Shown: one piece after another, positions 1,673-40,333 of the stretch
Layout: each line of letters begins with the position of its first letter
Numbering within the stretch: position 1 is the first letter of the stretch
DNA from: Paraspadella gotoi
Lineage: Eukaryota > Animalia > Chaetognatha
NCBI GenBank assembly: GCA_051294375.1
Contig: CM119265.1
Coordinates: 11,905,818-11,969,817, forward strand
Reading direction: 5' to 3'
Length of the DNA: 64,000 bases
Translations under genes and position numbers: made by a program
Notes under the pieces: generated by a model
Seen by the model: the letters and a program-made list of their open reading frames with translations, nothing else
Database searches by the model: none
What the model was told of the DNA's origin: nothing

Positions 1673-1961
1673 AGTAAGGAAAAATTTAGTAAAGTAAAAA
1701 AATCTTTAAATATGCAAATGAATTTATGCTTATTTTAATTTAAATTTTTGAGACTACCAGCAGATAAAGTATGCTTTGTCTATTTTATGGTTAAAAAATC
1801 AATCCAGTTCTCTTGCATATTTTAGGTATAAATGACAATTGAATTTTGTTATTAAAATGACCGAAACTTGTATATGTTGTAGAGCAACCAAAGGCCCATC
1901 TAAGACTGTGAAGAGAACAGTAATTATTGATAAGTGTTAGTGACAAAACCGTTCAATATAA

Positions 1962-2035
1962 GCAGTCCCTGAGCTTCGGATCAGGCTGTAACACCATGTT
2001 ACAGGCGGGTTAAGCGCCCCGTCCCTCTTAACTGC
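1962..2035 (-). ncRNA. Putative type-P5 twister ribozyme in family A LTR (homologous copies in the other three A LTRs)
   Basis: GCAGTT-AA-GAGG-GA-CGG-GGCGCT-TAA-CCC-GC-CTGTAAC-ATGGT-GTTACAG-CCTGA-TCCGAAGC-TCAGG-GACTGC: conserved UAA, GC, GA and L4 AAGC; P3, P4, P5 pair; T1 CCG/CGG. Predicted cut between 2012 and 2011. P1 is minimal and P2 bulged. Confidence 0.72.
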
Positions 2036-2038
2036 CAG

Positions 2039-2110
2039 ACGACCACCGGGCTAGAACCCCGGACCTTTGGGTTGGGAGGCGAGTGACTTGCCTCTGGCAC
2101 CAATGGCCGC
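2039..2110 (-). ncRNA. tRNA-derived (Gly-CCC-like) head inside family A LTR; not a functional tRNA gene
   Basis: Acceptor GCGGCCA/TGGTCGT (perfect TGGCCGC in the 45-kb copy), T arm CCGGG-GTTCTAG-CCCGG, loop CTCCCAA; D and anticodon stems decayed. Confidence 0.7.
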
Positions 2111-3200
2111 AGATGAACGGTTGGTGGGTTTTAGTCCACCATACATCCCCCCCTCCCGTAGGAAGATGTCTGTTGCGTCTCTTCAGTGAATTGTTGTTGT
2201 TGGTGGAAAGTGCGTCACCAAGTTGAGGCATGTCGCCTGATGTGTTGTGGGCGGAAAGTGCATCGCCAGGTTGAGGCATGTCGCCTGAAAGTGTTGTTGT
2301 TGCTGTTGTGTTCGGAAGTCGGGCTCACCAATGAAGAGACAGTAATTATTGATAAGTGTTAGTGACAGAACCGTTCAATATAAGCAGTCCCTGAGCTTCG
2401 GATCAGGCTGTAACACCATGTTACAGCGCGGTTAAGCGCCCCGTCCCTCTTAACTGCCAGACGACCACCGGGCTAGAACCCCGGACCTTTGGGTTGGGAG
2501 GCGAATGACTTGCCTCCGGCACCAATGGCCGCTGATGAACGGTTGGTGGGTTTTAGTCCACCATAACTGTAATATAAAAGCATAATATTCATTAATATAA
2601 TAGTTATGACTGATTAAAAAAATGACCCATCTAAACTATTTCTTTTAGTAAAACTGTTCAAATTTTATTCATATTCTAACAACATCTTACAAACCCTTTT
2701 GAGTATGTATATATAAAATTTTTAAAATGTACTACATAAAATGACAAAGTTATGCAACTTTTAAAATTTTTTTTTTTTGGGCTTATTTTTAAGTGGTTTA
2801 GAATTGTCCGATTTAAATTTTAACCATATGGGCAATAGACATACGTTGAAAATATTTTATGTTAAAATATCAGCTCATTGGACGTAAAAATAAAAGAATT
2901 ATTTCATCTCTAGAAAAAGGACACTAGTCTCTACGCTTCGGGTACTATAACAAAAATAAAAAATATTTAAAAAAATTATGATATCTGAATTCCCGAAACG
3001 TTATCCTCTTCCGTTCCCATAGGCCTCCAGAGGGCATTGATCTCCAGGAATGCCCGCTTTTCTATAAGCGCGGGATATTTTTGACAACATTTGATTTAAA
3101 TACCTTTTTTGTTTGTTTTTGGGTTAATTTTACTTTCTTTTTCTCATCACGTTAGTAAATAAATGCGGGTTTTAACCGACAGACAGGCCAAATCGGACTC

Positions 3201-3985
3201 ATGAGCTCGTCCGGTAGTTCCTCCGTGGAGCTGATGCTGAAGGATGCCGAGAAACTCGTCTCGAGGTTAAAGGAGCATGAGAAAGCGGCGGATTTGCTAG
3301 TGGGTCAGGCGGACGGGCTTCAGCGAACGATCAGAGCCAAGACCGCCTACATGAAGGTCTGAAACGCGGAGTATTGAGCTATTTGAGGAACAATTATAAT
3401 TCTGGTTGTTTTTTTTCGTGCAGGAAATCACGGCCCTCAACGAGATCGCCCGCCATCGCCCCCGTTCGGAACTCGTGCTCGAGATCCAAATGGAGAATCA
3501 GCAGATCCGGCGGCTGCAGGCGGAAAAACCGGGATCTTCGAATGCTCATCGACGAGCACCAGTCCGCCCTTGACGTCATCATGACCAAGTATCGGGAACA
3601 GACGGCGATCGTGACAGCGGCGAAGCGGACAGGCGGAAACGGGAACCGTCGAAGCGCCTTCGCCCATGCTCGGGCCCTCCAACGGAAGCGGGAAAAGGTT
3701 AACGAGTTGACGGCGGTCATGAGACGCGCGACCGAGGTGGACGATGGCGCCGACGACAAAGGCCGCGCCGTCATCGAGCGGTTGGAGCGGGAGAATCTAA
3801 GATTGCGAGAGCTCCTCATGATTTGCGACAACGTGTGCGACGACGGCGGAGGCTGCGGCACCGAGATTGTCACCGCTTCCTTCGCCGGCGACGAAATGAT
3901 GGCGTCTCGAGCGGCCAGTGTCGACGACGGAGTTTTGCCGACAAAAAACGGAGGAGACAATGAAAAAACAATGACGGACGATTAA
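3201..3985 (+). CDS. FGFR1OP2: FGFR1OP2/SIKE family coiled-coil protein; exons 3201-3356 and 3424-3985; apparent +1 frameshift in an A5 run at 3524-3528
   Basis: ATG at 3201 gives MSSSGSSSVELMLKDAEKLVSRLKEHEKAADLL. GT..AG intron 3357-3423. Exon 2 reads EITALNEIARHRPRSELVLEIQMENQQIRRLQAE, then after removing one A, NRDLRMLIDEHQSALDVIMTKYREQ, matching the family motif ENRELR..LEEHQSALELIMSKYREQ. Confidence 0.85.
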
Positions 3986-4575
3986 TATTATTTATTATCT
4001 AATGTATTCGCTTGTTTTTTTTTTCATGTACATCCGATTCCATCTCAAACTGAAATTCGCTCCCCATTTAAACTGTAGTAAAAAATATTCTTTATTTTCT
4101 GCGAGAACGCAGATCTGACCCGCTCATCGAATTTTCTTTCATCTCCGTCGCGTTGCGAGTAGTGTGGGGATTGAGGGGAGTGGAAAAAACGAGCGTGAGC
4201 GGATTGGGCGATTTAGCTTAATCCGAAATTCCCAATCTTACCTCAGAAAAGGTAGTTTATCGTTGCAATCCCCGCTNNNNNNNNNNNNNNNNNNNNNNNN
4301 NTGGAAGGCCGGTTTCGTTCGTCGTCGAGTTCACCATGTGTCAAAGTTCGTACTAATACTTACGTTTTTTTCTTTTTTTTTAGTTTATACAATACATCGT
4401 TTAAGGGTGTAATTATAAATTCCGCTGAGTTCTTTCAGCGAGTGGATAACGGCCAGGTAAACAGTATATCTCGATGGCGCTGTAACTAGTTAATGTGGTT
4501 ATTAATTACAGATTCTAATTTACAGAGCGCTGTATACATTCTTCTACGAAGACGTTATCAGAAAGGCCCTACAAG

Positions 4576-7500
4576 ATGCCGATTCAATCGCCACAGTGGA
4601 CGGACTTCTTATCGTGTCCGATATGTTTCAACGAATTCAATAATGCTGTTAGGAGACCGATTTCGTTAGGATGCGGTCATACAGCATGTAAACAATGCCT
4701 TCTGAAACTTCACCAGAAAAAATGCCCGTTCGATCAAACTCCCATTAATACGGAGCTAGACAATCTTCCCATCAATTTCGCTCTACTTCAATTGGTCGCT
4801 CCTTCAACGCCGTCTTCGAAGCACGAAGACTCCCCTCCTTCTTCGCCAAAGATTACGATGGAGCACAAACCCCTTTACCTTGCCGCAAACAGATGCATAG
4901 AAGAAATGGCGTTGTACTTAAAGCCACTTTCTGTCACCGGTAGCGGCGGGGGATCTAGTTTGTTATCCAGGCCAATGCAAAGGAAACTGGTGACTCTCAT
5001 CAACTGTCAGTTGGTCGAAGAAGAAGGAAGATCACGGGCCATGAGAGCGGCACGGTCTTTAGGGGAAAGAACGGTTACGGAATTGATTTTGCAGCATCAA
5101 AACCCTCAGCAGTTGAGCGCCAATCTGTGGGCTGCAGTGCGTGCGAGAGGATGTCAATTTCTTGGACCGGCTATGCAGGAAGAAGTATTAAAATTGATTC
5201 TCCTTGCTTTAGAGGATGGATCCGCTTTATCTAGAAAAGTTTTGGTTCTTTTTGTTGTGCAAAGGCTCGAACCTCATTATCCTCAAGCTTCTAAAACGTC
5301 TATAGGTCACGTAGTTCAACTGCTCTATCGAGCTTCTTGTTTTAAAGTTCAAAAACGTGAAGAAGATTCATCCCTAATGCAACTAAAGGAAGAATTTCGA
5401 ACGTATGATGCTTTGCGACGAGAGCATGACGCACAGATCGTTCAAATAGCAATGGAAGCTGGTCTAAGAATTGCTCCAGATCAATGGTCATCTTTACTCT
5501 ATGGCGATACGGCACACAAAAGTCACATGCAGTCAATAATTGATAAACTGCAAACGCCTCAGTCTTTTGCGCAGAGTGTAAATGAGCTTGTAATTGCTTT
5601 ACAGAGAACCGGAGATCCAGGAAATCTTTCTAGATTGCGACCACACTTTGATTTGCTTGCGAACGTTGATCCTAGCCCGGATTCTGGCACTCCCTCTTGG
5701 CGAGAAATAGAATACGCAATGGCGGCCGTTAAGACAGTTGTGGAGGGTCTTGTAGAATTTGTCCAGAGCCATAGTTCAAAAAGAGGGATGGTTGTTGGAT
5801 CATCTCCTCTTGCAACAAATACAACACAGCTTCCTTCTCCTTCTGGTTTTAGCGGATTAGGTGGGTTTACCACGTCTGGGGCGGATTACCCTACTAGGAA
5901 TATTATTCCAAATAGATATAAAACTAGCTTATGTCGGGACTGGGCGCAAAGAGGGTCGTGTCCAAGAGGCATGTGTTGTACTTTTGCTCATTCTGTTGAT
6001 GAACTTCAGAGGAATAAAAGATACAATTCGTCTCAGAATAACGCTTCAAACTTAGCGAGTTCCGCAGCGATAGGCGCCGCTGCTGCTGCAGCAGCCTCAA
6101 GAGCAGCTTATTCTGCTGCAGCAGCTGCATCAGTTGCTGCTAATTTGGAAAATCCTTCTGCTAAGAACCTAACGCATTACAATTCCAGACAAGGACCGCC
6201 TAAGCAATTTTCGTCACGAGTTCCAGGCAATCACCGTTTTCCAAATTTATCTTCAGACTTTAATTCTGCTCAACCTCCATTGCCTCGTCAAAACACGGGC
6301 TGGAATATAGACGTTTTTGGAGGCCACCTTGGTTTTCCTTCATGCCAAGGTTATACAACCAAGTATCCGACAAATCTACCAAGCTCAAGTTTTTCCAACA
6401 CTAAACAGGTTACCCCTAATTTACTTACACAAGATATTATGGGTTTAACAAACCAAGCCTCTTTGCCACCATGCACGCAAAGCAACTATCCCGCAGTCAC
6501 AGTGCAACAAGCAGCAGCTGTCGCCGCTCAACATCTGGATGCCGCGGATGCTTATTTCAGCCAAATTCAGAAAATACAGCAACAAGGCCAATTACCTCAA
6601 AAAGATCCGGTTAATGAAAAAATTAGATCTGCTGAACAGCAAACTGTTGCGGCCGCTGCGGCAGCAGCGGCCGCTGCGGCAGCAATCCAACAGACAAAAT
6701 CCGATCAAAAGATAGATTTAACCGGAGTCCCACCTTCTCCTAATCATATTCCTCAAGTTGCAGCAGCGGCCGCTGCCGCAGCAGCGGCTGGCCTTCCTCA
6801 AATTGACTATGCTCATTCTCCAATGTTTCATAATGTCATACCAGGAAAAGATCTTTCTCAAAATATACGACAAGTGAATTCAAAATCTTTAATATCAGGC
6901 TGGGAGCAGTTTGATTCGTTGCAATCTCTTCATCTTCGTAGGGATGCACTTATGGCGAAATTACAACAAATGCATCAATATCAACAGGATTATGCTATAA
7001 CACAGCAGGCTTCTGCTGCAGCAGCGGCTGCTGTAGAGCAGTTAAAACCATCTATTCATCAAAACTCTACTCAACCATATATGGTTGCCGCCAATGCGGC
7101 TTTAGCAGCCGCCGCAGCAACTGGGAATCAAACTTCTCAATTTCGTCAAAATCATGGGCAAAATGTTGAAGCAGTGGCAGCGCAAGTTGCGGAAGCCGCT
7201 AGCGCTGCCACTTTACAAGTAATGCAACAGCCAGACCCTAATCAAATCAAACAATTGCAACAGCACATCGTCGATCAGTTAGCTTCTGATCCTGGAGATT
7301 TAATTCCATTTGACTCGATCCCATCAATCTCGAAATATGGACCAATAACCAGAGCAACTAAACCTTTAGAAAGAGTCGTCCCATCTCCTTTAGCATTTGA
7401 AACGATGTCGCACCAAGGTTCGCCAGTTACCGGAGCTGCAACCGTGGCAAACGCTGCCGCTGCCGCTGCATTTGCTGCTCAATTAAGTTTATGCAAGGAT

Positions 7501-8301
7501 ACAAGCCAACTAGGATCTGGAAGAGTAAAGAGGCTTGCTGATAATCAAGAAGAAGCAAGAGTTCAAGAGATAAACAAAATCGATGAAGAAATTCACAAAC
7601 TTGACCGTCGAATCAACCGCGTTTATGAAGAGGAAATCTTGAAGCAAAAGCTAGCAGATGTAGAGGCACAAATAAAGCAGCTCGAATTAGGTCATTCCCG
7701 TAATTCATATACTCCAGTTGGCATATCCCAAAGCACTAGCGTAGATTCTTTGTCTATGCCTAATGCAACCATGAATTACGATTTGTCGAATGTTCTAAAT
7801 CAACTTGGTGACATGCCTGCTCGGCAGCCACAACCTTTACTAGGGGACATCGCAAATGAGTTTTCCATCGCGAGGCAAATGATAGAAATGCAACAAGCCA
7901 GTGGATTAAACCGACAGTTGCTTGATATGCAAAATATCGATCAGCAGATGCTTGCCACTGTTTTAAGAAGGTATCAGCAAGAAGCCGCTGAAGGATCACA
8001 ATCCCCCTATCCCTCAGTTAATTCTCAACTTGGGTCGAATTCTGAAATCGAGCAGATGGCCCGATTGCGATCCCCCTCAGCATCATCCGAATCTTGCATC
8101 ATGCCAGGAACTGGACAACAAACACGAGACAGTGGCCAAAACGAGACAAATCTCGATCATCTCTCCGAATCAGAACGTCATCAATGGCAACGTCTTCAGC
8201 GTCAGTTTAATCGACCATCTGATAGTTTAGAACGAGATGAGACCAGCAGTGACCAAGGCATAGTGAACGATTTCACTCAGCCTTATGGCTCAGACAATTA
8301 A
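4576..8301 (+). CDS. RC3H1: Roquin (RING - ROQ - CCCH zinc finger), 1241 aa, no CDS introns
   Basis: [21 protein letters not shown] start; ROQ domain ([41 protein letters not shown]); CCCH finger [26 protein letters not shown]; C-terminal IPF..SKYGPI motif and coiled coil. Likely 5' UTR introns at about 4252-4384 and 4457-4525. Confidence 0.97.
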
Positions 8302-8518: not shown

Positions 8519-8752
8519 TGAAGAGACAGTAATTATTGTTATGTGTTAGTGACAGAACCGTTCAATATAAGCAGTCCCTGAGCTTCGGATCAGGCTGTAA
8601 CACCATGTTACAGGCGGGTTAAGCGCCCCGTCCCTCTTAACTGCCAGACGACCACCGGGCTAAAACCCCGGACCATTGGGTTGGGAGGCGAGTGACTTGC
8701 CTCCGGCACCAATGGCCGCTGATGAACGGTTGGTGGATTTTTGTCCACCATA
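8519..8752 (-). mobile_element. Solo LTR, family A (tRNA head + twister)
   Basis: 234-bp copy of the LTR at 2332-2565; TSD TTAT at 8515-8518 and 8753-8756. Confidence 0.92.
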
Positions 8753-8909
8753 TTATCAAGTTTTTTTCTTATAAATATTCAAGAGATATATGTACATTGT
8801 ACAACATGTTAGTTAGCATCAAATAATTTTTTTAAACAAACTTTCGTTAATTATTTATTTAAAAACAGGATAGGCCTGGGGCATATAATATATTTTGTCG
8901 ATCATATAT

Positions 8910-10822
8910 CAACAAGTTTGAGCAAACAATGTCGGATCTGCCTACGATAATTAAGTGGTAATAAGCGAACTTGATCAACTGACATAATTTGGTCAACTGA
9001 CATAATTTGGTCAACTGACATAATTTGGTCAACTGACATAATTTGGTCAACTGACATAATTTGGTCAACTGACATATAATTTGGTCACTATATGGTCACT
9101 GACATAATTTGGTCAACTGACATAATTGGTCAACTGACATAATTTGGTCAACTGACATAATTTGGTCAACTGACATAATTTGGTCAACTGACATAATTTG
9201 GTCAACTGACATAATTTGGTCAACTGACATAATTTGGTCAACTGACATAATTTGGTCAACTGACATATTGGTCAAGTGAATATTTGGTCAACTGACATAA
9301 TTTGGTCAACTGACAATTTGGTCAACTGACATAATTTGGTCAACTGACATAATTTGGTCAACTGACATAATTTGGTCAACTGACATAATTTGGTTCAACT
9401 GACATAATTTGGTCAACTGACATAATTTGGTCAACTGACATAATTTGGTCAACTGACATATTTGGTCAACTGACATAATTTGGTCAACTGACATAATTTG
9501 TCACTGACATAATTGTCAACTGACATAATTTGGTCAACTGACATAATTTGGTCAACTGACATAATTGGTCAACTGACATAATTTGGTCAACTGACATAAT
9601 TTGGTCAACTGACATAATTTGGTCAACTGACATAATTTGGTCAACTGACATAATTTGGTCAACTGACATAATTTGGTCAACTGACATAAATTTGGTCAAC
9701 TGACATAATTGGTCAACTGACATAATTTGGTCAACTGACATAATTTGGTCAACTGACATAATTTGGTCAAACTGACATAATTGGTCAACTGACATAATTT
9801 GGCATCAATTAACATAATTTGATCAATTAACATAATTTGATCAATTAACATAATTTGATCAATTAACATAATTTTTGTTGATCAATTAACATAATTTGAT
9901 CAAACCGGCATAATTTGGTCAACAGGCATAATTTGGTTACCTGGCATAATTTGGTCAATCAATCAATCAGAGAGAGACAGAGAGAGAGAGAAACTTAAAA
10001 AATTCAAATAAATGTGTCTTTTGGTTTTTTAATTTGAACTCTTTTCCACTCCTACGATTCCATCAAAAAATTTATATCCAGCTTTATCACATACTTTCCT
10101 ACCCACACACAAAATTTCATTTCAATTTATCTATCAAATTTTTAATAAACATAATAATTATGAGTAAATTTATGTAAAAATACTTCAAGTAAATATGACT
10201 TTTGTTTTTTCCATTTTAACTCATTTCCACTCGAACGATTCCATCGAAACTTTATATCCAGCTCAATCACACACTTTCCTACCATCATACAAAATTTTAA
10301 GTCAATTGCCCTATCCACTCATGAGCAATTGGCGTTCAAATAGTGAAATAGATTTTTTTGTTTTTTTTCCATTTAAACCAATTTCCACTCGAACGATTCC
10401 ATCGAAACTTTATATCCAGCTCAATCACACACTTTCCTACCATCATACAAATTTTAAGTCAATTGCCCTATCCACTCATGAGCAATTGGCGTTCAAATAG
10501 TGAAATAGATTTTTTTGTTTTTTCCATTTAAACCAATTTCCACTCGCACGATTCCATCGAAACTTCATATCCATCTCAATCACACAGTTTTCTACCCACA
10601 CACAAAATTTCTTACCAATCCATCCATCCAATCACGAGTAATTGGAGTTTTTTGCTAAGGGGGGCGGACGGACGGACATAATTTTTTTTGCATAATTTAT
10701 CATAATTCGAGGTTCTGATATGATAATAATGATTTAACGACAATATTTTGGGGTGGGACCGACGGACCGACAAAGTGAATTATAGAGTCGGAATCTGCTG
10801 ATAAGCAGATCCGACTAAAAAT
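8910..10822 (-). mobile_element. Non-autonomous Helentron / DINE-1-like element (HINE) with central tandem arrays
   Basis: 5' palindrome GTCGGATCTGC-TTATCA-GCAGATTCCGAC, GTCC microsatellite, subterminal GCAGATCCGAC and terminal CTTGTT on -; homologous to 17270-18374. Confidence 0.72.
8975..9960. repeat. 18-bp minisatellite (TTGGTCAACTGACATAAT)n, about 50 copies, inside the HINE
   Basis: Directly visible; drifts to TTGATCAATTAACATAAT at the right edge. A ~142-bp tandem repeat follows at ~10205-10640. Confidence 0.97.
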
Positions 10823-11009: not shown

Positions 11010-11277
11010 TGTGGATAAGGCGCTACGTGGACTGAAGATGACTTTCCGTAACTTCTATAACACCCTCTAGCAGCCATAGAACGGGTCCCTGGGCTTGGAA
11101 CCAGGCTTGAGGGTTTGCCATGCCCCCAAGGCGGCTTACGGCAGGGTAGGTACCGGGTTGGGATTGAACCCGGTGCCTTGTGGTCATGAGCTGATGGCTT
11201 TACTCAATGAGGCACCGGGTTACAACTGAAAGTGTCATGATTCTAGGCGGGGTGAACCTAGGCAATGCCCGACTACA
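11010..11277 (-). mobile_element. Solo LTR, family B (tRNA-Met-like head + twister with ~17-nt deletion)
   Basis: TG..CA termini; TSD ATAT; inverted copy of 20005-20287 but lacking the GCGTGAGGA (P2'/T1) segment. Confidence 0.88.
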
Positions 11278-11423
11278 ATATAACGAATATTGAGATGAAA
11301 TATTATTCATTCCTTATTTAGTTTTTCTTATTAAATTTTGAGGTTTTAAGATAGCAACAGCTTGATTGCTTTAATAAAATTGCATTATTTAGTACTTTGG
11401 AATTGCAGATTTGGTCCAGGACG

Positions 11424-11840
11424 ATGAATCCCACCGAGGAATTCTCGAAAGTCGCCCCGGAACCCAAAACTGATTTCTTGGGCTACGGATTCGCGGCCCT
11501 CGTAATCGTCGGTGGGCTCATGGGCTTCAAAAAAGGCAGCAAGGCATCTCTAGAAGCTGGGCTGCTTTCGGGTAAGTAACGATTTCGAATCAATGGCGAG
11601 GGTAAGGTCCTTCCAGAAACCACAGTTCCTTTTCAATCAGGCGCCGCCATCGGGTTCGCCGCCAACCGTATTTCCAAGGACACCTCCTACGCCTTTTTGG
11701 GAACCGGTATCTGTGGGACCTTGGCCGGAGTAATGGGCTACAGGTTCTATAAGTCGAGAGCCTTCATGCCTGCTGGGCTCGTGGCCGGGTTGAGCACGGC
11801 GATGGCCGGAAGATACTTGTACATGCAGACGAAATATTGA
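11424..11840 (+). CDS. TMEM14: TMEM14 family small membrane protein; exons 11424-11571 and 11641-11840
   Basis: DFLGYGFAALVIVGGLMGFKKGSKASLEAGLLSG | AAIGFAA..GTLAGVMGYRFYKSRAFMPAGLVAGLS; canonical GT-AG intron of 69 bp. Confidence 0.9.
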
Positions 11841-12003
11841 ACGTTAAGCTCGACTTGTTTCCCACTTCGTTGAACTCATGTGAAATGAGTAATTTTTTTT
11901 TGTCGTGATAGCTTGAAGTTGAACTCTTGTTTGAACCTTAGATAATGGATGGATAAGTTCGGTTCGGTTCTTTTTCTCTCCTCCGGATTAAAAAGGGGAA
12001 AAA

Positions 12004-15000
12004 ATGGCGACGAAAATGAAAGAAATAATGAACACGCTTCGAGATAAAAACGAATTAATAGATTTGGCCGTTCATCGCTGTCACGCGCTGGATAGTCTCA
12101 ATCTCTTCACGTCAAAAATAACAACGACGACGTCTTCAACCAAAACTGGTTCTCTCACTGGAATTCCAGTTTCCGTCAAAGACAACTTTTGCACGGTTGA
12201 CTTCCCCACTACGTGCAGCTCGGAGATGCTGCGGAACTTTCGTCCGGGTTACGACGCCACCGTGGTGGCGCGGATGTTGCGCGAAGGAGCCGTCCTCGTC
12301 GGAAAGAATAACATGGACGAGTTCGCCATGGGATCGGGAACGACGGACAGTTGCTTCGGACCTTCGAAGAATCCGTGGAGCTTTCGGGATCGACTTGTTC
12401 ATCGCGGTTCCTTAGAGGACGAAACTGCGCCCTCTTCGTGGCACGTGTGCGGCGGAAGTTCGGGCGGCAGCGCGGCGGCGGTGGCAGCTGGAGTGGTCAT
12501 GGCGGCTTTGGGGTCGGACACCGGCGGATCGACGCGGCTGCCGGCGTCACACTGTGGCGTCGTCGGACTGAAACCGACTTACGGGAGACTTTCTCGTCAC
12601 GGGCTGATTCCGTTAGTCAACTCGCTCGACTCACCGGGTATGGAGAAGGTGGAAATAGGACAGGGTGGTTTTGTTTGTCAATCTGATGGATAATTCCGTC
12701 TGAAGGATAGTCTCCTCTTTTGCTTTCACTTGTTTAAATTTGCCCTCTTAATTGATTAAATTTTATTTATGAAATTGGTACAACCAATATAAAAATTATC
12801 CATTTATTTAATAAATAAGCTATCTTGCCCCTGACTTTGGACAGGCTTTGGTGGTTTAAGGCCTCCATCACTCTTACAAGATAATGACATAGCAGGTCCC
12901 TGCAAGCTTTCAATCAAGACTCTCTCACAGTCTCGTTTATTCACTCCCAGAGTACCTGGCTTCCCTATCAATGAAGTGGTATAATATGGTATAATATTCA
13001 TATGTAATTAATTACGTATATTTCGCATTTGTCGGCTTTGTTAAGAGCGAATTCACCAGAAAATCGTTAATTTTTATTCCGTGATTCAAAACAGGGATTT
13101 TGACGCGAACTGTGGACGACGCAGCCCACATTCTCAACGTCATCGGTGGTCACGACCCTCTAGACTCGACCTCCGTCGTGCCAGATGCGCTTGAAGACAT
13201 CGTCCTGCCGGATACGCCGCAAATACACGACCTCGTCGTCGGAGTCCCGCAAGAATACTTTCACCCGGAACTCGACCCAGACGTGTTGGAATGCTGGATT
13301 AGGATCGGGAGAGAAATGGAAAAAGCGGGTGAATTTCGATGCTCTTGTTTGGTCCATAGGAAAATGACGGCTAATTTGTTTTCATCTCAGGCGCTCGTCT
13401 TGTTTCGGTTTCCCTACCTCACATGCGTTTCTCCATCATCACCTACTCTGTTCTTTGCTGCTGCGAAATTGCTTCCAACATGGCGAGATACGATGGACTC
13501 AGATACGGGCACAGGGATCCCAAAATGGATTCGACGGAAGGTGAGATTTTTTTTTGACTAACGAGGATATTAGGTTATGGGCGCGCCTTGTTTCATGATT
13601 ATCGCGATTAGTATATGAGTACCTGAGTAGATAAGAAAAAAATTTGCGATCATGTTAGAGATGTACGCTCGGTCGAGAAGCTTCGGATTCAACGACGTCG
13701 TCCGCGGACGAATCTTCGCCGGCAACCATTTTCTCTCTCGACGAAATTACGTGCGCTACTTCGCTAAAGCGCAGACAGTACGGAGACTCATCGCCGACGA
13801 ACTCTTCCGCGCATTGGCGCCGGGAGCGGCCGACGTCTTGTTGACGCCGACCACGACGACGCCAGCGTTGACGTTCGAAGGTTAGAGACAGATTCTTTAG
13901 ACTTTCAATGATTGAGATGAGATAGTTTTATATAGGGTAGTGCGGGGTAATTCGGAACAGGGGTAATATGGAACAATGACAAATAAAATGAAATAAAATA
14001 TTTATGTAGGGAACTTGAATAATTATTGCTGGTGCATTAAATATTCCACCAACTTGTCAACTTGTAGAATTCCACTGTTGCTGCAGCAGCAATTTTAAAA
14101 AAGCTTGTCAAATTTCGTCTTTGAGTAGTCGTTTTCAAGCCTCTGTCAAAGTAATATTTGTTGTAATATGATTATGAAATTTTAATAGATGATAAAGGAG
14201 ACTACTAATTTTTACTTACTATTCTAAACATTAAGTGGAGGTGGTCGAGATAAAAATGGCGAATAAAATGAGATGAATCGATTTATTGAAATCAGAAAAG
14301 CGAATGGAATCGAATTGGCTAATTGTACAAAGTGGCATTCATTTTTATACGGAGAGAGAGGAAAAATTTGGTTTACATTTGTAAAGTAAATAATTCTAAA
14401 AATACTTCCAAGTAAGGTAACGTTTTGCGACCGGCGTTTGAACAGAGGGAGCAAAGCAATTTCTTAGAGGGCATTGAAATTTTTAAAGAATTTGACCAGC
14501 GATTTTATTTTCTTTCTTACTAATAATAATAATCAGGATCTCCACTTTTCTGCGAGCCATTTACAAAACCCTATGGGCCTGTGACGTCGATGAGAAGGTC
14601 AACGAGCAACTACAAGCCCTGCTGGCCCGAGACGAAGAGGCCAGCGTCTACATCGACCCGATAAACGGCAGCCTGTGACGCGGCCTCGTGGAGATGTGCG
14701 AGAGGACGTCCATCGGCGCCGCAGAAGTCGCCGATAAAATCGTAGTCATTATTGACCCAGAGGAGCACGAACTTCTCTCCCTCGCAGACTTCGCAAAAGC
14801 AGACACCTGCGACTCCGCCCACCAGCGCATAGCGGAACAACGATTTGGCAGATTCAAGGCGACGCGACGGGAAAATAGAATGCGCGACCCAGAATGCCTC
14901 AAGGTATGGAGAGACCCGATACGCACAGGTGCTGCCCCGTCAGGGAACAAAATACGGACTATATCCACCGGGCCGCACGAGATCGTGGAACGAGATGGAA

Positions 15001-18000
15001 ATCATTTCAAGGTCGCGGTATCCGGACAAAATCTCATCTACCACAGGCAACGACTGAAAGCAGCGACGGGAGACTCGTCCGCTTTCAGAAATTAATAAGA
15101 AAATGAGAAAACAAAACTTGTAAATAAAGAAAAGATAGCAGTAGAAATAGTGGAGAACAAACAAGAGACTACAACAACAACAAACCAAATAGACAAACCA
15201 AAAGAAAATAAATCCACACCCCTCCCTCTAACCAAAAAAATCATCATCATCTTCATCATCCTTGCGAACGAACTTTTGAACTCCGGCGAAACGATCGAAG
15301 CTCGGCCGAAGAATAAAAAAAAAGGGGGAGCGGAGAAAAGGGAGATGGGTGAAGATCGAAAGACAAAGATCAACAGGGTCAAAGAAAAAAAGGGGGGGCA
15401 TTATAGCAACAGCTGGGTTGCCTGTGATGCCCATTGGGGGCTTCCGACCCTCAGTGACGACTCCAGTCACTGGCGCGGTTACCCTAGGACAGTCTCGCTT
15501 TGCCAACGCAGAGGGAATTCGTCAGGACTGGATGGAACACTGCGCCTGGGATGGTGTGTTCCCCCTCTGAGCCAATGGATTTGGCTGAAGGATGGTGGAC
15601 ATGAGGCGGTGTGAATATACTGTCACAGGATCCCTGGGCCAAGACATCACTCAGATTCCTCAAGCCTGAGAGTGTCTGACAAGACTGTTACCATAGTAGG
15701 AGAGAGAGCGTGAGTTGTGGGGCCATAGGCATTTGTCGTAGCGTACCCCAGGGGCATAGGCGTTTGCATAGCATACCCAAAGTCGGCAGGGCATAGGCGT
15801 TTTGTCGTAGCGTACCCTGAGAAGGTTTGCGTGTTTGATAGTAGGGCTCACCACTTATGGCAACAGCCGGATTGCCAGTGATGCCCATTGGGATGAGGCA
15901 TCTCACTGTTGGCTTTGTGGGCTTCCGACCCTCAGTGACGCCTCCAGTCACTGGCGCGGTTAGCCGGTTACCCTAGGACGGTCTTGCTTTGCCAACGCAG
16001 AGGGAAGTCGTCAGGACTGTGGATGGAACACTACGCCTGGGATGGTTCCCCCTCTGAGCCAAGGGATTTGGCTGAAGGATGGTGGACATGAGCCGGTGTG
16101 AATATACCGCCATAGCATCCCAAAAGGGCAAGGAGGGCCAAACGAAGAAGAAAAAAAGAAAGAAAAAGAAAGAAGCAGACATAAGAGAAGGAAGAGAAGA
16201 GGAAGTGAAAACGCATGGCCAGACTCAGCAGAAAAGAAATCAAGAACACTTTCAACAAAAAAAAAAGAGAAAATGAATCGCCGGTTATCAAAATTCACGC
16301 TCGTTGCAATAATCATCGCGCTCAACGCCCCGAACGATGCAACCACGAGAAAAAGAGGCCAAATCGGCGCCACCGACTTTCAAAAAAAGCGTCATTTTTA
16401 ATTGCAACGAGATGACCGACAACACAGCGATTGTGTTGGACGAAACCAGAGGAACGAAAGAAAGATTCGAAACTACAAACCTACTCTTCGCCCAGGAATC
16501 AAACGAACACGACGGCGTTGGCTGTGACCTCACAATAGTGGCGACTGGACGATACTGCGGAAGATGGTCGATCCCAAGGGATATCTGCCTGGACCTGCAC
16601 AGAGGAAAATCAGTGAAACTGCAATCCATTCCAATCCGGATCGCATGAGCTAAACATCATCAAGCACAGGAATGGCATGAACGACGCCACCAGAGCATGC
16701 ACGGGAAAATTGTTAAGCTTTCATGGCCACCGATATGAAAGCGAAAACGCAAAACTGGTTTCAAATCTAACTCTTTATAAAAGAAAAATTAAAGCCGGAA
16801 AAACAAACAAAATCAAAACTCGGGCGCCGCAACCTGGCAAGCCAAGAATGCAGCTACCCAGGCGGCGTCATCGCCTGGGACAACAATGAATGCCGCATCA
16901 AGCTCGCCTACAGGGGAGGCGTCTTCAGGAGCGCCGATAAAATAATCAGATCACTTACTAAGAGCTAGACACATTTTTTTCCGCAAATGGTGATAGAAAC
17001 TTCGAAAAACCACCATTCGATTTGAAATAAAATTCTCTTTCGAATGATGTGTTACATGGTGACAATTTTACAAGCGCCGGTAGAAATATGCTGTCATTTG
17101 CAAACCAGTGGTTATTTTATTGATTTTAAAAATTAGTTGAGTAGAAAATACTAAAACTATTTGTGTTAAAATTTTATATTGATCAGTTAAGATATGCCTT
17201 GACAATGAGTGGAGAAAGTTGGCTTGTAAAATCGGGTTTCATTTTCCAACTCACTTTTTTTAGATTCAATTTTTAGTCGGATCTGCTTATCAGCAGATCC
17301 CGACTCTATAATTCACTTTGTCGGTCCGTCGGTCCGCCCCCTCAATATTGTCGGGCACTAACTTATATCATGTCAGAACATCGAATTATGATAAATTAAG
17401 CAAAAAAAAATGATGTCCGTCCGTCTGTCTCTCTGTCCGTCCGTCGGTCCCACCTTAGCAAAAAACACCACAATTCTCATATATAATAGGTGATGATGAT
17501 TGATGAAATTTGTGTGTGGGTAGGGAAGTGTGGATTGAGCTGGATATAAAGTTTCGATGGAATCGTCCGAGTGGAAATAGGTTTAAATGGAAAAAACCAA
17601 AAAATATAATTCACTATTTGAACTTCAATTGCTCATGAGTGGATGGGGCGATTGACCTGGAATTTTGTATGTGAGTAGGAAAGTGTGTGATTGAACAGGA
17701 AACAAGTTTCGATGGAATCGTTTTGAGTGGAAATGAGTTTAAATGGAAAAAAACAAAAAACCTGTTTCACTAATTGATTATGATTTTTTTTCCTTTTATA
17801 TTAAATGTATATGCAGGATGTATTAATAAATCAAATAATTAATCAGTTAATTAATCAATTAGTCAATTAATCACTAATTAATTAATCAGTCAATCAATCC
17901 GTCCATCCATCCTACCTTAGCAAAAAGCCCCAATAACTCGTGATTGACTGGTTGGATCGGAATGAAATTTTGTGTATGGGTAGTAACATGTGTTATGAAG

Positions 18001-21000
18001 CTGGATATAAAGTTTCGACGGAATCGTGTGAGTGGGATATGATTTTAAATGGAAAAAACATAAGTCGCATTTACTAAAATCTTTTTACTTATTTTAACCA
18101 ATAAATCTCTAATTAATCATAATTGGATGGATAGGATTGAGTTAAAGATATTGTGTGTGGGTAGGAAAATGTGTGACGAAGCTTGATATAAAGTTTCGGT
18201 ACGAGTAGAAAAAATATAAGTCCAATTTACTTTATTTTAAGGACATCGATGATGATAAGCTGTATATAAATTATAATTAATTATTAAATATTAAAATTAA
18301 TTAATTAATTAATCAATTGATTAATTAATTAATTTTCCTAGGCAGATCCGACATTTTTTGCTCAAACTTGTTTTCTCTTACTTTCAGTAAGTTTTCTGAA
18401 GAAATTTGAAATAAAATAGTATTAATTTTATTATTCTTTTGAAAGCCCTTTCAAATCTAAAAAGAATGACGTACTTACAAATACTGTAGTATAAAATTTA
18501 ACTGGCCCAGCTTTAATTAATAAGGATACTCAAAAACGAGACATCTTTTTAAAAATCAATAGCTGGAGAATAAATTATGATATTTATCAAATTGTGATTT
18601 GGCTATCTTAAATCTTTTTTTCTCAGGCTCTTTCATGATACTTATAATAAGTTCAGTGATTTTGATCGAGGAATTCAGAAAAAAAACCACTTTTTGTAAT
18701 ATTGCTAGAATATTACCTTCAAAATAAAAAAAATTATGTCCATTTTTGTCCATTTTCACTTTTGTCTTGAGATTTGAATGCCAAGATCATTGAAGAAAAA
18801 TTTTTTACTCCGGCTTTCAGGTCCTCCTTATCTTCTTTACCTCTGAGTTGGTTCATTTTCAGTTGGTCATTTATTGTTTACCTATGAATTAATTTTTAAA
18901 TTGACTGGTCAAAAACTTACATTTTTACATTTTATTACAATTTGTTAAACAAAAATACTTCAAAATGATCACAATTCTAATAAAATATTCCTTATGAACG
19001 GTGCTTCTGGTACCTAAAAAATTAGGGCAAAATATTTAATACTTTTGCTGCAAAAAAATTTTTAAGTCAACTTTTAATTTGTGAGGATTTGTGAGGTGCG
19101 TTTTATTTGAACTAAAACTCGGTTTTTAACTCATTTTATAGTTTTAACAGATGATAAACATACTAAGGTTGACAAATTAAAAAAAACCGCCTTCTTTTAT
19201 TGAAAGGGGAAGCGTCAGCAAATTAATTTTTCTCAATCGACAGCTTTTTGCGGAAAAAATTTTCGCAAAAATCTGTCGATTTTTNNNNNNNNNNNNNNNN
19301 NNNNNNNNNNNNNNNNNNNNNNNNNNNNNNNNNNNNNNNNNNNNNNNNNNNNNNNNNNNNNNNNNNNNNNNNNNNNNNNNNNNNNNNNNNNNNNNNNNNN
19401 NNNNNNNNNNNNNNNNNNNNNNNNNNNNNNNNNNNNNNNNNNNNNNNNNNNNNNNNNNNNNNNNNNNNNNNNNNNNNNNNNNNNNNNNNNNNNNNNNNNN
19501 NNNNNNNNNNNNNNNNNNNNNNNNNNNNNNNNNNNNNNNNNNNNNNNNNNNNNNNNNNNNNNNNNNNNNNNNNNNNNNNNNNNNNNNNNNNNNNNNNNNN
19601 NNNNNNNNNNNNNNNNNNNNNNNNNNNNNNNNNNNNNNNNNNNNNNNNNNNNNNNNNNNNNNNNNNNNNNNNNNNNNNNNNNNNNNNNNNNNNNNNNNNN
19701 NNNNNNNNNNNNNNNNNNNNNNNNNNNNNNNNNNNNNNNNNNNNNNNNNNNNNNNNNNNNNNNNNNNNNNNNNNNNNNNNNNNNNNNNNNNNNNNNNNNN
19801 NNNNNNNNNNNNNNNNNNNNNNNNNNNNNNNNNNNNNNNNNNNNNNNNNNNNNNNNNNNNNNNNNNNNNNNNNNNNNNNNNNNNNNNNNNNNNNNNNNNN
19901 NNNNNNNNNNNNNNNNNNNCATAATTCCTCCTTTGAGGTCATCAGAACTGATTGGATCTTTAAAGTTGATTGCTGCCATTTTCAGGGAGTGTCTATTCTA
20001 TATTTGTAGTCGGGCATTGCCTAGGTTCACCCCGCCTAGAATCATGACACTTTCAGTTGTGACCCGGTGGCTCATTGAGTAAAGCCATCAGCTCATGACC
20101 ACTAGGTACGGGTTCAATCCCAACCCGGTACCTACCTGCGGAAGCGTGAGGACGCGCCGTAAGCCGCCTTGGGGGCATGGCAAACCCTCAAGCCTGGTTC
20201 CAAGCCCAGGACCCGTTCCATGGCTGCTAGAGGGGGTTATAGAAGTTACGGACAGTCATCTTCAGCCCATGTAGCGCCTTATCCACATGGGAGCCCATCC
20301 TGTCGAGCGTATTCCACCTTCTGATTCCAGGCCCTTGGTCTAGCTAAAGATTGCTCCCCTCCCTCCACTTGATATACTTACAAAAGCTCTAACATAAAAA
20401 GTGAGCTGCCCAGCCTTAGTTCAATTAAGAGTGTCAAAAGTGAATTATTTAAAATTTTAAATCTTTTTTCAAAATATATGACCTGTTTAAATTATTATAA
20501 CATAAAATATTATTATTTATGGCAGTGATTTTGCTTTGGGTATTTTCAATAATGAAATTGGAACTTAAATAACTTAATTCTTTTTTCCCACTGATAAATA
20601 TGAAACACTCTTATTATAAAAAAACGGTTTGGTATTAGTTATCTTTTCCTTATAACATAAAACTCACTAGGTAAATTTTTATGCTTTCAAAATACGGTAA
20701 GACATTATTTCTTTCACGTCAATCATTCCAATTACGGTATCAGCCTTAATTAAGAAGAACTAAAAACGATTTTTCATGGTAAGAACAACTTTTAAAGATA
20801 AAATTGCTCGTAAAAACTGTTGTTTTTTTTAGATATACTACTACTTAGGCAAAAAAATCGGCACACTATGTTATGAAACTTTTTTTTGTTTTCCTTTTCT
20901 TTCTTAATTTCTTTCTTTTTTCGAACTTTTGCTCTGACTCTCTCTTTTTCTCTTCTCTCTGTGTTAAGTATTTTGATGCTTCACGCTCCCATAATAAGCG

Positions 21001-24000
21001 TTAAATTTATTTTATTTCGACATAGTCAGTAACTCTGTCCTTCAGCTGTCCTCACCTTCAATACTATCCATTACTCAATTCTTTGGTGGACGCTCTCTCT
21101 CTCTTCTCTTTCTCTTCATCATAATGTTTGACAAAATTTCTTATAAAATTCACCACTGTGCTGAAGAAGACTCGAAAAAGAATCGAAACATGTCCGTTTC
21201 AAAATAAAAGTGAGAATATATTGGCATCTTGGAAAACCTGATGAATTTTTTAAAAAGATTGCATAATAATGCAAACCCACAAATTCTGGACAAGAATATA
21301 ATGGATCTACTTGCTTTGGTACAGAATACACATATGTCCCCTCTGCCTTTAAAAATCCAAACTGTCTCCACCTCAACTCAAACCTATTCACCCAAGCCAA
21401 TGCTTCAACCCAGACCACAAAAGCCAAAGCTAGTTGCAATAAATCAACTCGGACAAAAATTCCCTACTCAACCCCCTCTTCCCAAACTACACAAATCACC
21501 ATCATTTCTGATTCAGTTTCAACACAAACCAATGTTGCCAAGACTGATTCTCAAGTGCAGACCCACTTACCAACTGTCAAAGACTATGCTAAAGATGTGA
21601 AAACTCAAGCTGGAAAAATCCAAGGAGAAACTTCATTTGCAAGAATCAACTCAAACAAGTATCAACACAAAAATCAAGCCTGCTCTTATCAGTCTCCGGC
21701 CAAGAAATGGGAAACAAAATCAAGAAGTGAAAGAACTTGTGGCCACTCGAATAAGGAATAATTCAGGATTCAAAAACTCGATGAAAAGACTTTAAATCAA
21801 ACTCGAAATCTTTTGTTTTCCAAGTAATTCATTTTACTTGCTCAAGATGTCTCCTTTACAAAAGATCTTTTGTTATTTAATTCTCCACTGATTGTTTACT
21901 TTATTTGATTGTTAACTGAAGAAATTCAGTCTGGTTCTCTCTCAGATCAAGAACAAATAAATACTAATCTTGATTCTCAACTCGTTTTATTCTAATCATC
22001 TAATGTAGTAAATACATTGAAATAAAGATGAGCAAAACTTAAATGAATTCTCTTCATCAATTAAATGATAAAACAATTTGAATCCCGTCTCACTCTTTCC
22101 CTGCAACTTCGTCACTCGGGAATATTCATTCTTCGTGCCAACGTCTTAGTCACGTGACCCGTCCGTGTCACGTGCCCTTCGTCACGCTGTGGCTACTCTG
22201 GGCCCTTGCCACAAACTGGACCCTGGAAAGAATACATGATCCCTCAAACCTGCGCTGAAAAGATCTATATCCCCCCTCATCGACGTGTTCATCAAGACCA
22301 AAGAAGGCAACCAGCTTTTGGAAAATGCAAAAATACTTACCCTGGACTGACTTACGACCATGGTTGCGCCAGAAGTTTGCTGCATTTTTGGCCCAGACTT
22401 TACCATTGCCTTTTTTTTTAAGAATTGATATCAGTCATGGTGCAGTAGCATATCTTGACAATGACTGTGACATAAATTAAAAATAAACTTTTTAATCATT
22501 TAAATAGGGACCAACTCCGCAGATAATATAAAATTTCGACTATTAGCAAAGTATTTTTAGTTGTCTTGACTAAATATTTAGGCAATCATTTTCAAAAAAA
22601 ATTTACATTTTACGTCTTGATTAATACATTAAATATTACTTGTGTTTTTTACATTATAAAATTTTTTTCTGAAATCTGAAAATTTTTTTATGGATTCTGA
22701 TAGAGCACAAAAAGTTAAACAAGAAATATAATTACAGCTTTTAAAAATTCTTACGTTTTCTATGTGAAAATATACAGAAGGCTTCATATTAAAAAATGTG
22801 GTACCCCTTTTTTGTGACCAGAACACGTTCCGAGAAAACTACTGAATAGAATTTAATGAAATTTTGCATGCGGAGTACCAGTAGTGATACAAATGGAACT
22901 ACCGAGGCAAATTTTTACATACCACCCCTAAGCTGAGATAAGGGGTCTTGAGGGGGCAGCCCCTGAGGGCCATAAATGGTCAAAAAAGTTTTTAAAATTT
23001 TTTTATTATTTTTGTTTTTAACAGTTGCACAGTCGTTTACTCTTCCACAAAAACATATTTATTACCTCAAAAATATTCATTTACCTTAATTTTTAGCTTC
23101 ATGAACATCAGCAGTTAAAGTCAGATTTGGAATAATTTGGGAAAATTGGAAGTAAAACGATGAACCATGCATCTTTAACCATGCTTAATTATTTCAAATT
23201 TATCAATTTTAGTTCTAAAATGCTTTTTTCTTATGTTTAAAACGTCGATGCACCTGATGCTATTAAAAAAAATTTAAAAAAACAATTTTTAGCATTTTTT
23301 GGCCCCCCAGGGGTCCAGCCCCAGGGCCCTGTATCTCTTGTCAAGGGTTGAATATCAAAATTCGCCTCGATAGTTCCATTTATATAGTCTTTAGCACTCT
23401 AAATGTAAAATTTCATTAAATTCGATTGGGTAGTTTGGTGGGAACAGATTCTGGTCACAAAAAAGGGGTAGTACATTTTATAATATGAAGCCTTCTGTAA
23501 AAAAACTAATTTTTTACGGTTTTTGTTATTTTTGACTCATCATGAAAATATTTAAAAAAGAATTATACTTTGTGAAGACAACTTTTTATGAGCTATCTGA
23601 ATCCGGTCTTAAAATTTAAAAATTATGAAAACAATTTTTTGCCTTTCCTATTTATAAATAAATATTAAAAAATTAATTATTTGGGTATAGAGCCACATAA
23701 GAAATGTTTTGTCCATTGAAAGTATACTTCAAAATGTATAAATTTTCGTTTGAGCATGTAATCATTCTAAATTTTTGACTCACCCCATTGAGTGGGGCTA
23801 CCCCTAATTTAAATAGCGTTTGATAGAAATCCAATAGTTTTAGTTTGTGACTTCTCTCATTTTTTTAGTTCTGTGTCTTTGTTTTTTAGTCCAGAGGGAA
23901 ACATGATGATGTAATGCCACGCCATTGGGGGCCTGGATATGACATCTTGGTCAAAAAGGGGGACACAGAGGAGGATTTAGCTTGCCGTCCCATTCTCCTC

Positions 24001-25014: not shown

Positions 25015-26105
25015 ATGGAAATTGTTCCTAATGGCTGTTCCTACGACACGGAGAAATTAAAAATTGAAAACAAAAAAAATGTGATAATTTCCTCTTTACC
25101 TCATTCCTTGACCTTGGAAAAAAACAGCAATAACATTAACGAACCCGTTAAATGCAAGCGGAGAAAATCACGAGCTCTCCTGGAGGAGAATCGATTCGCC
25201 CAACGAATCGAAGACATGGTCGAGGAGCATTTAAAATACAGCAGGTGAGGGGAATTATATCTGTAAAGTTATTTATACATGCATACATACATTTCGTCTT
25301 TTGCGCTATGTAGACCTAACTCGGACGACGATTGGAAGGTCGTCTCCGAGGAGGGAGACATGAAAGTCTTCATTCGCGAAGTGGAAGAAGACGGCGCGAT
25401 ATGTGATCCGGTTAAAGCGGTCACGACCGTGAAGGTAAAATTACTTGGGGTAGCAATTGAATACTAGGTGATTCATTGCCTCATCGCATGTCTCTTTTCA
25501 CTTTACAGGGTGTAAGCGCTCGTGAGATGTGTCACCTTTATTTCGACCCTTCTGTTCGCATGTTGTGGGAGACTTCGATCGAGTCTTCCGAAGTGGTGGA
25601 AGCGGTGGAACCAAGCGACACCCTCGTGTATTACCAAAGGTGCAAGCGGATCTGGCCGGCGGCGCAGCGGGACACCCTCTGTCTGACCCATATTCGGCCC
25701 ATCCCGGCTGAGACCGAACTGGTGGGTGGAGCTGACGGCGTGGTCTCCCTGTCTCATCCCGGCCTTGACTGGATGGTCGTCAACTTCTCCATCGACGACG
25801 ATGACTTTTACGTGCCGCTCGGCGGCTGCGTCCGCGCGCGCGTCCAGGTTTCCATGACGTGCCGCACGGTAGTGGCACCAGAAGCTACCGGCGCCGATTC
25901 GCCGCAAGATCCCGAGGCGGCATTGGCGGCGCTGAGTCGCGACCAAATCGCCTGCGATATCGTATATCAATCGTTCGTTGACTTTGGCGGGTGGGCGCCA
26001 GCTGCCGCCACCAGGGCGGTGGCCAAAAAGGAGTACCCAAAGTTCGTTAAAAAATTCAGTCAGTTTGTCAAAAATCAAACTAAGGATTTGCCGATCATGT
26101 TTTAA
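25015..26105 (+). CDS. START-domain lipid-transfer protein, CERT/STARD11-like, apparently lacking the PH domain; exons 25015-25244, 25314-25434, 25509-26105
   Basis: WKVVSEEGDMKVFIREVEEDGAICDPVKAVTTVKGVSAREMCHLYFD..WE, KRIWPAAQRD, W..VNFS, GGWAPAAATRAVAKKEYPKFVKKF are CERT START motifs; GT-AG introns in frame. Confidence 0.85.
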
Positions 26106-40213: not shown

Positions 40214-40333
40214 CTCTTCCGATGGCACCGCGTTGCTCTTCCGATGGCACCGCGTCGCTCTTCCGATGGCACCGCGTCGCTCTTCCGTTGGCACCGCGTT
40301 GCTCTTCCGTTGGCACCGCGTCGCTCTTCCGAT
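40214..40333. repeat. 22-bp tandem repeat (CTCTTCCGATGGCACCGCGTCG)n within a GC-richer repeat-laden segment ~39460-41290
   Basis: About 5.5 copies; 23-bp repeats at ~39974-40056 and 21-bp repeats at ~41043-41120 lie nearby. Confidence 0.9.

Follow-up and report, generated by a model that had tools for sequence, protein, structure and literature searches.

This work concerns a stretch of 64,000 nucleotides from the chaetognath Paraspadella gotoi (assembly GCA_051294375.1, contig CM119265.1, positions 11,905,818 to 11,969,817 of the forward strand), hereafter the window, and a small repeat near its left end. At 1909-2565, on the minus strand, lies a complete, non-coding terminal-repeat retrotransposon in miniature (TRIM) of 657 bp, which keeps to the size of less than 1 kb expected of a TRIM. 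It has two long terminal repeats (LTRs), a primer-binding site (PBS), a polypurine tract (PPT) and a target-site duplication (TSD), and each LTR contains a fold of the twister ribozyme, type P5. The LTRs belong to a family that we call A, whose features in the window are the following.

2565-2332, minus strand: 5' LTR of the element, 234 bp
2143-1909, minus strand: 3' LTR of the element, 235 bp
1905-1908 (left) and 2566-2569 (right), plus strand: TSD ACTG, 4 bp
2318-2330, minus strand: PBS, Trp-like, starting 1 nt past the 5' LTR
2144-2331, minus strand: interior, 188 bp
2146-2157, minus strand: PPT of 12 purines, ending 2 nt from the 3' LTR
2462-2530, minus strand: degenerate tRNA-like head of the 5' LTR, A-box-like at 2524-2513 and B-box-like at 2480-2470, one mismatch each
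2040-2108, minus strand: second copy of the tRNA-like head, 3' LTR
2383-2458, minus strand: type-P5 twister fold of the 5' LTR, core from GA at 2445 to P4' at 2390, predicted cut between 2434 and 2433
1961-2036, minus strand: type-P5 twister fold of the 3' LTR, core 2023-1968, predicted cut between 2012 and 2011
2435-2440, minus strand: linker GGCGCT, 6 nt, at the P1 position of the 5' LTR twister
2018-2013, minus strand: linker at the P1 position of the 3' LTR twister
2012-2433, minus strand: predicted monomer, 422 nt from cut to cut, holding one LTR equivalent, PBS, interior and PPT, with no terminal redundancy
8519-8752, minus strand: solo LTR, TSD TTAT, twister fold intact
44997-45230, minus strand: solo LTR, TSD ATAC, twister fold intact

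The PBS follows the 5' LTR, the PPT precedes the 3' LTR and the whole is bordered by a short TSD, as in other TRIMs. The LTR termini are TA..CA instead of TG..CA, the two LTRs of the element are 96.6% identical and its GC content is 55%. Compared by eye, the PBS shares 12 of 13 nt with the tRNA-Trp PBS of Fig. S2 in PMC10886601. The longest open reading frame (ORF) starting with ATG has 83 aa and spans interior and LTR. Read by eye, the interior holds two ~48-nt direct repeats (about 2288-2193, minus strand) and CAA-rich spacers. Short direct repeats also occur in the interior of family C, in about three ~28-nt copies at 15700-15830; that those of A and C serve as packaging signals is a guess. 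The anatomy laid out in the original prediction, namely the LTRs, PBS, 188-bp interior, PPT and TSD ACTG, was recovered feature by feature at the expected positions, and its spacing of 422 nt between the predicted cuts, after U2434 and after U2012, is likewise correct.

Three insertions of family A lie in the window, each with its own 4-bp TSD (ACTG, TTAT, ATAC). Among sequencing runs, none catalogued as RNA contains the element. A spliced contig of the adjacent amidase gene, with four GT-AG joints and no differences, shows that run X1 contains RNA of this organism. Contigs of this run leave the family A LTR sharply at its ends (49 at 2332, 18 at 2565 and 17 at 2566) into flanks that agree poorly with each other, which indicates that family A has many insertions. 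X1 contigs cover families A, B, C and D, as well as non-coding stretches at low depth. Summed depth over the repeats is very high, with LTRs above interior, a pattern that copy number multiplied by background could also yield; ends, strand and level are not readable from the X1 data, which are assembled contigs. Runs X2 and X3 gave 0 and 1 contigs.

Within 64 kb the P5 twister fold is found in four repeat families. The features of families B, C and D are listed below.

15402-16114, minus strand: family C TRIM with two LTRs (C1), TSD GCAT, Trp-like PBS, P5 twister folds with T2 CGG/CCG, 8-nt self-complementary linker, PPT not clear
28365-28912, minus strand: family C copy (C2) with LTR, interior and truncated second LTR
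20005-20287, plus strand: family B LTR, TG..CA, followed by a PBS that starts with TGG; perfect B box; P5 twister fold at 20148-20210 with T2 TCC/GGA
11010-11277, minus strand: family B solo LTR, TSD ATAT, with the GA/T2' part of the twister deleted
12830-12872, minus strand: family D P5 twister fold in a multi-copy repeat, T1 AC/GT, T2 CCA/TGG, linker AGGCCT
36306-36350, plus strand: second copy of the family D fold

The element of family B extends over 20005-20420 (plus strand) and its PBS, which differs from that of A, is one that we take to resemble tRNA-Pro. The repeat stretches of family D lie at 12768-12980 (minus strand), 36301-36421 (plus strand) and 37574-37635, the first of them inside an intron of the amidase gene. 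It has a sharp end in CA at 12768, where 32 and 25 contigs have other flanks, and the D twister is without P3; the repeat has no A and B boxes.

In family A the order of the parts is that of the circularly permuted type P5, with both pseudoknots pairable and with the core GA, the UAA in which cleavage would follow the U, and the U-nnn-AA of loop L4 all present. None of the four family A LTRs has lost the cut site, and P4 has 4-5 bp. To judge the fold against chance, a P5 twister descriptor was composed after inspection of families A and C; it found family B by itself, and family D came through Rfam after a depth peak in run X1 had pointed to it. In 5000 dinucleotide shuffles of the LTR the strict descriptor matched none and the loose one matched 7. 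A relaxed descriptor gave nine matches in the window, none of them outside the four repeat families; 100 block shuffles had 0.89 on average and 3 at most. Two sites escape this descriptor, namely the 5' LTR of C1, where P4 has 2 bp, and the B copy at 11010, whose GA/T2' segment is gone. The claim that each LTR carries a twister is borne out in that both descriptor and shuffles place the fold beyond chance.

The nine matches all retain the core GA, the UAA and the U-nnn-AA, and T1 and T2 are pairable in every one. The pairs themselves differ by family. T2 is CCG/CGG in A, CGG/CCG in C (one copy with a G-U), TCC/GGA in B and CCA/TGG in D; T1 is GC/GC, but AC/GT in family D. The arms P3, P4 and P5 vary in sequence among families while their pairing is kept, and blastn, in the queries made, showed no similarity of one family to another at E<=1e-3. 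This covariation was read from an anchored parse, MAFFT having misaligned the twister families. Compensatory changes of T1 and T2 across four families argue for selection on the tertiary fold. Rfam gave twister matches below its gathering score for D (E 0.002, 25.8 bits, against a gathering score of 37.6), B (E 0.53) and C (E 0.99). Pseudoknot pairs are absent from the structure lines of the Rfam twister models, and because of this the changes of both D pseudoknots count as independent support.

In an assay of ~2600 natural P1-type twisters, which did not cover the permuted types, defects of P1 and P2 were tolerated and those of the pseudoknots less so (PMC11662667). Judged from the sequence, the intact parts of the family A fold are the pseudoknots, which are the parts found sensitive in the P1-type twisters of that paper. 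Taken together, these patterns make us highly confident that the twister fold is real and selected.

Upstream of each twister, the family A LTR has a tRNA-like head. Scored with A- and B-box consensus motifs, its boxes stand at tRNA-like spacing with two mismatches in total, which only 2 of 400 shuffles of the 5' LTR and 6 of 400 of the 3' LTR equalled, and the head shows a closed stem with a T-arm-like hairpin. For the two copies of family B, 3 and 47 of 400 shuffles were as good. Of the tRNA head in the original prediction, the A/B-box-like motifs are supported beyond chance in family A. ARAGORN (0 matches) and Rfam (E<=10) did not recognise it as a tRNA, and blastn of the A and B heads against phages gave short chance matches only and no tRNA. 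The head is hence a degenerate, tRNA-like candidate for a type-2 promoter of RNA polymerase III (Pol III).

A further feature of these twisters, absent from the original prediction, concerns P1. The normal P1 hairpin, ~20 nt in the type-P5 model of Rfam, is not present, and at its position there is a linker of 6-8 nt that is unable to fold alone. Full self-complementarity of the linker is seen in 8 of 10 copies, from three of the four families (the A LTRs, four in number, the two of C1 and the two copies of D), with duplexes of -8.3 to -11.0 kcal/mol and no hairpin, while central 4-mer palindromes occupy 3.5-6.4% of positions in these LTRs. For a transcript with two LTRs, of the order P5-P2'-linker-P2-P5, interior, P5-P2'-linker-P2-P5, a wholly nested drawing is possible in which a single P1 is shared and the two active sites are swapped. 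This double-twister model has -190.7 kcal/mol against -187.5 for two single twisters, a gain of 3.2. In the primary transcript the swapped P5 helices have probabilities of 0.88 (inner) and 0.69. The self-complementary linker suggests that the ribozymes of the two LTRs may act jointly, cutting as a pair. As a precedent, an amphibian hammerhead with a palindromic tetraloop is cleaved efficiently only as a dimer (PMC7229834).

These features can be joined into one chain, in which a Helenus-like TRIM with P5 twisters is transcribed by Pol III into an RNA that releases a 422-nt monomer, the monomer becomes a circle, and the circle is copied in trans by a Gypsy-type reverse transcriptase (RT). We regard the chain as a whole as evenly poised between right and wrong; its steps differ in strength. 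Transcription would probably be driven by Pol III from the A and B boxes, with a start near LTR nt 36. Cleavage between U and AA in both LTRs is likely. If cleavage does take place, it is plausible, though a little short of probable, that the 5' and 3' linkers form one shared P1 with two swapped active sites and with the interior as the loop of P5. Such paired cutting would wait until both LTRs have been made, host RNAs with only a solo LTR in them would be left uncut, and a single-copy circle would resist being cut again.

The released monomer would carry the ends left by twister chemistry, a 5'-OH and a 2',3'-cyclic phosphate (PMC5408937). P5, P2 and T2 would then hold both ends together for an RtcB-type ligase, a step to which we lean slightly; RtcB circularised animal hammerhead-cut monomers in vitro (PMC7229834). 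The circle could well be the template, without being quite the probable one: an R repeat is missing from the monomer, and two LTRs would be restored most simply from a circular template. A circle model has been published for the LTR retrozymes of plants, where the argument is likewise a monomer without R region (PMC4918200). tRNA-Trp would prime, and a Gypsy-type RT supplied in trans would copy; animal Helenus elements have been assigned to Gypsy helpers (PMC10886601). A search for a Gypsy helper among six ORF fragments of the window (at 14.7 kb, 53.8 kb and 58-61 kb) gave no Pfam match.

Several observations weigh against this scheme. Rfam has no match at gathering score across the window and its twister models (RF02684/RF03160) give none for family A even at E<=10, and P2 is short, with 2-3 bp in A and B. 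Family C has only weak A and B boxes, which 27-34 of 400 shuffles equalled, and family D has none (387 of 400). The linker of C2 has a central mismatch and that of B (7 nt) is not self-complementary. When the primary transcript was folded unconstrained, with pseudoknots and co-transcriptional folding left out, it reached -204.1 kcal/mol, below either twister model, and the linker-linker helix had a probability of 0 in this fold, in which pseudoknots are not counted. The monomer folds no better than its shuffles (z -1.02 linear, -1.05 circular, 52% paired) and is thereby not unusually structured, unlike retrozyme circles, which are highly paired (PMC7761336). The two LTRs of the element have diverged by 3.4%, and beside P2/T1 the 5' twister carries a change that is absent from the other three A LTRs, so that this copy may be an aged one.

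The lack of TTTT had been put forward in support of Pol III. It is correct that no sense TTTT lies between the head and the second cut, the sole one of the element being at sense 618-621 (about 1948-1945), and that none lies in the C copy at 15402-16114. The supposed depletion did not survive comparison with shuffles. Of 4000 shuffles of each kind, 47% of the mononucleotide and 21.5% of the dinucleotide ones lack TTTT as well, so that its absence is at chance level for an element of 55% GC. Among the A LTRs it is lacking in two of four (2332-2565 and 44997-45230), and a sense TTTT is present in the A solo LTR 8519-8752 and in the C copy 28365-28912. The absence of TTTT fits read-through by Pol III and gives no evidence for it.

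Four other explanations have to be weighed against this chain. In the one that survives best, the twisters cut, but the template of RT is an uncut or singly cut Pol III transcript with an R region from LTR nt 36, cleavage serves 3'-end formation, replacing a terminator, or acts as a brake on copy number, and circles are by-products or absent. The uncut transcript with its long R region would be a good canonical template too, which is a further point against the circle. Helenus families without reported ribozyme have PBS and PPT, and a canonical route is assumed for them (PMC10886601). The A LTRs without TTTT (2332-2565, 44997-45230) would need some other 3'-end signal, and the twisters at the 5' end of RTE elements merely process an end (PMC8501958). 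Against this, LTRs are identical at birth, so that a ribozyme which trims the 3' end would also strip the R region from the 5' end, and if cutting did no more than destroy templates, it would come at a cost to keep the catalytic residues, as four families do. We consider this explanation unlikely, though the most probable of the four.

Alternatively, the monomer may be excised and left unligated, as a nicked circle whose ends are held together by P5, P2 and T2 and whose nick the RT jumps. A P5-like helix links both terminal regions in the folded monomer, and the high probability of the swapped inner P5 (0.88) in the primary transcript agrees with this. End-to-end jumps by RT are usually imprecise, whereas the cut site has been preserved in each of the four A LTRs. 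RtcB, in addition, readily seals such ends in vitro for animal retrozymes (PMC7229834). A nicked template hence appears improbable.

To the same small degree we entertain that the ribozyme cuts as a monomer and that the GC-rich palindrome is a signal for genome dimerisation in packaging, analogous to the dimer-initiation sites of retroviruses; the rest of the circle model may hold in that case. A linker of 6 nt could bridge the site with a single pair, and the palindrome is lacking in B. P1 of the twister has been reported as dispensable (PMC5408937), and its deletion leaves activity (PMC5408937, PMC11662667). On the other side, the palindrome lies exactly at the P1 position in three families of differing sequence and in a register fit for a shared P1. 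Least probable of all is that the fold is a relic or look-alike without present catalysis, for example captured with a SINE, in an ordinary Helenus-like TRIM with possibly Pol II read-through: Rfam is blind to A, P2 is weak, P1 is missing and the head is unrecognised by ARAGORN and Rfam, but such a relic would not account for compensatory T1/T2 changes over four families without blastn similarity.

Turning back to the circle, the element would, by analogy, work in the manner of the LTR retrozymes of plants, with an animal as host, a twister in place of the hammerhead and a probable Pol III head. Like the plant elements it is non-coding, with one ribozyme (here predicted) per LTR, PBS, PPT, a 4-bp TSD and solo LTRs, and it would share with them a cut-to-cut monomer without R region and a helper of Gypsy type that is inferred there as well (PMC4918200). 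It differs from them by its animal host, by its type-P5 twister in contrast to a type III hammerhead (no hammerhead core was found in the 1909-2565 element), by a predicted monomer of 422 nt as against about 600-1000, by its Trp-like PBS instead of a Met one and by its tRNA-like A/B boxes (PMC4918200). Plant retrozymes accumulate abundant linear and circular unit-length RNA in vivo, whereas the circle here is predicted from sequence.

The likeness to the Helenus elements (TRIMp3; PMC10886601) is that of a TRIM of less than 1 kb with A and B boxes in the LTR, a PBS for a tRNA 3' end (Trp among them), a PPT and, in animals, a 4-bp TSD (here ACTG, TTAT, ATAC, GCAT and ATAT); some Helenus families also start with TA. 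The Helenus box B GGTTC is present in families A and B and not in C. For box A, TRGCY in 'most' Helenus families and thus not strictly defining, family A has TGGTG..AGG instead. By eye, the tRNA of most published Helenus LTRs lies near the 3' end and is followed by a T run; here it lies in the 5' third and is followed by the twister. Pol III promoter function is also unvalidated for Helenus itself (PMC10886601). In that paper the word 'twister' is absent from the text and 'ribozyme' occurs in a reference title only. Its supplement contains neither 'tccgaagc' nor 'cccaagcc' (wrapped lines may hide split motifs), and no twister was seen by eye in parts 1 and 5-9.

Two Helenus LTRs of wasps, Helenus-2_SyJa-LTR and Helenus-2_SyUm-LTR (PMC10886601 DataS1), appear, as read by eye, to carry the core of a type III hammerhead that is not annotated there; it directly follows the B box, at the position that the twister has in the present element. 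Both elements have a Trp PBS, long complementarity between loops 1 and 2, and T runs in their interiors, again by eye.

Compared with the type-P5 twister (RF02684; PMC5408937), the order P2'-GA-T2'-[P1]-UAA-P2-T1-P3-P4/L4, the termini in P5 and both pseudoknots agree. The P1 hairpin (~20 nt) is here replaced by the 6-8-nt linker, P2 has 2-3 bp and the Rfam score is below threshold or lacking. The non-LTR retrozymes of metazoans (PMC7229834) resemble the element in that they occur in animals, are small (170-400 nt) and give a monomer delimited by ribozymes; RtcB-type circularisation has been obtained there in vitro and would apply here by extension. They are tandem repeats with type I hammerheads and lack LTR, PBS and PPT, as PMC7761336, PMC7229834 and PMC11722881 state, while the element here has all three. 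The T-variants of the twister in the RTE element Perere-3 (PMC8501958) offer another twister with irregular P1 in an animal retroelement, but of a non-LTR element, of P1 type, single at the 5' end and with no circle. No published account of a twister in a TRIM or LTR was found in a search that left most subscription papers, Repbase Reports and the supplements of twister surveys outside.

Relatives were sought elsewhere with a gapped twister pattern in 20 of 64 parts of a metagenome contig set, which gave 120 loci, none of them blastn-similar to A, B or C. As candidate twister relatives these loci were rejected, only one having a P4 of 3 bp, which is what chance would give. An exact 19-mer had 0 matches in viral contigs.

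The remaining content of the window is as follows. The Roquin (RC3H) gene at 4519-8301 (plus strand) is one open frame of 1260 codons, whose N-terminal 405 aa are 74-79% identical to most of the 120 homologues listed (arthropods, octopus, vertebrates). The spliced amidase gene, GatA-like by our own reading, occupies 11250-13880 (plus strand). A SIKE-family ORF and a START-domain ORF are located at 3281-3985 and 25461-26105 (both plus strand). A GC-rich stretch at 57950-61700 has broken frames whose motifs are reminiscent of an RT of DIRS type; five fragments were without Pfam match. Tandem arrays were noted at 8907-9836 (period 18), 24039-24470 (18 (9)) and 40185-40356 (22 nt), as well as two pairs of dispersed repeats, 22767-23499 with 42504-43204, which has long terminal inverted repeats and is MITE-like, and 14253-14547 with 29413-29706.

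LTR retrozymes have so far been described from plants and with hammerheads, and the animal retrozymes have been published as lacking LTR, PBS and PPT. Four families within 64 kb, together with the hammerhead seen by eye in two wasp Helenus elements, suggest a recurrent design. On this ground we raise, as a speculation that is more doubtful than the steps above, that animals may have LTR retrozymes of their own, recurrent and with interchangeable ribozyme class. These would be TRIMs driven by Pol III, in which the half-dependent P5 twisters of both LTRs join into a double ribozyme by way of a palindromic P1; only the full-length transcript with two LTRs would be cut, and the circle, having a single copy, would be stable. 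If true, retrotransposition by circular RNA would extend to LTR elements of animals, and the class of ribozyme would be exchangeable. The twister class would gain another biological role and Pol III, twister and ligase would form a natural route to circular RNA, and the paired ribozyme would amount to a 'double twister' of natural origin, the counterpart of double hammerheads. The model of a circle as the template of RT has been proposed, and seems to be unproven, for plant retrozymes, as far as the accessible literature goes; an element as small as this one would make it testable in another kingdom.

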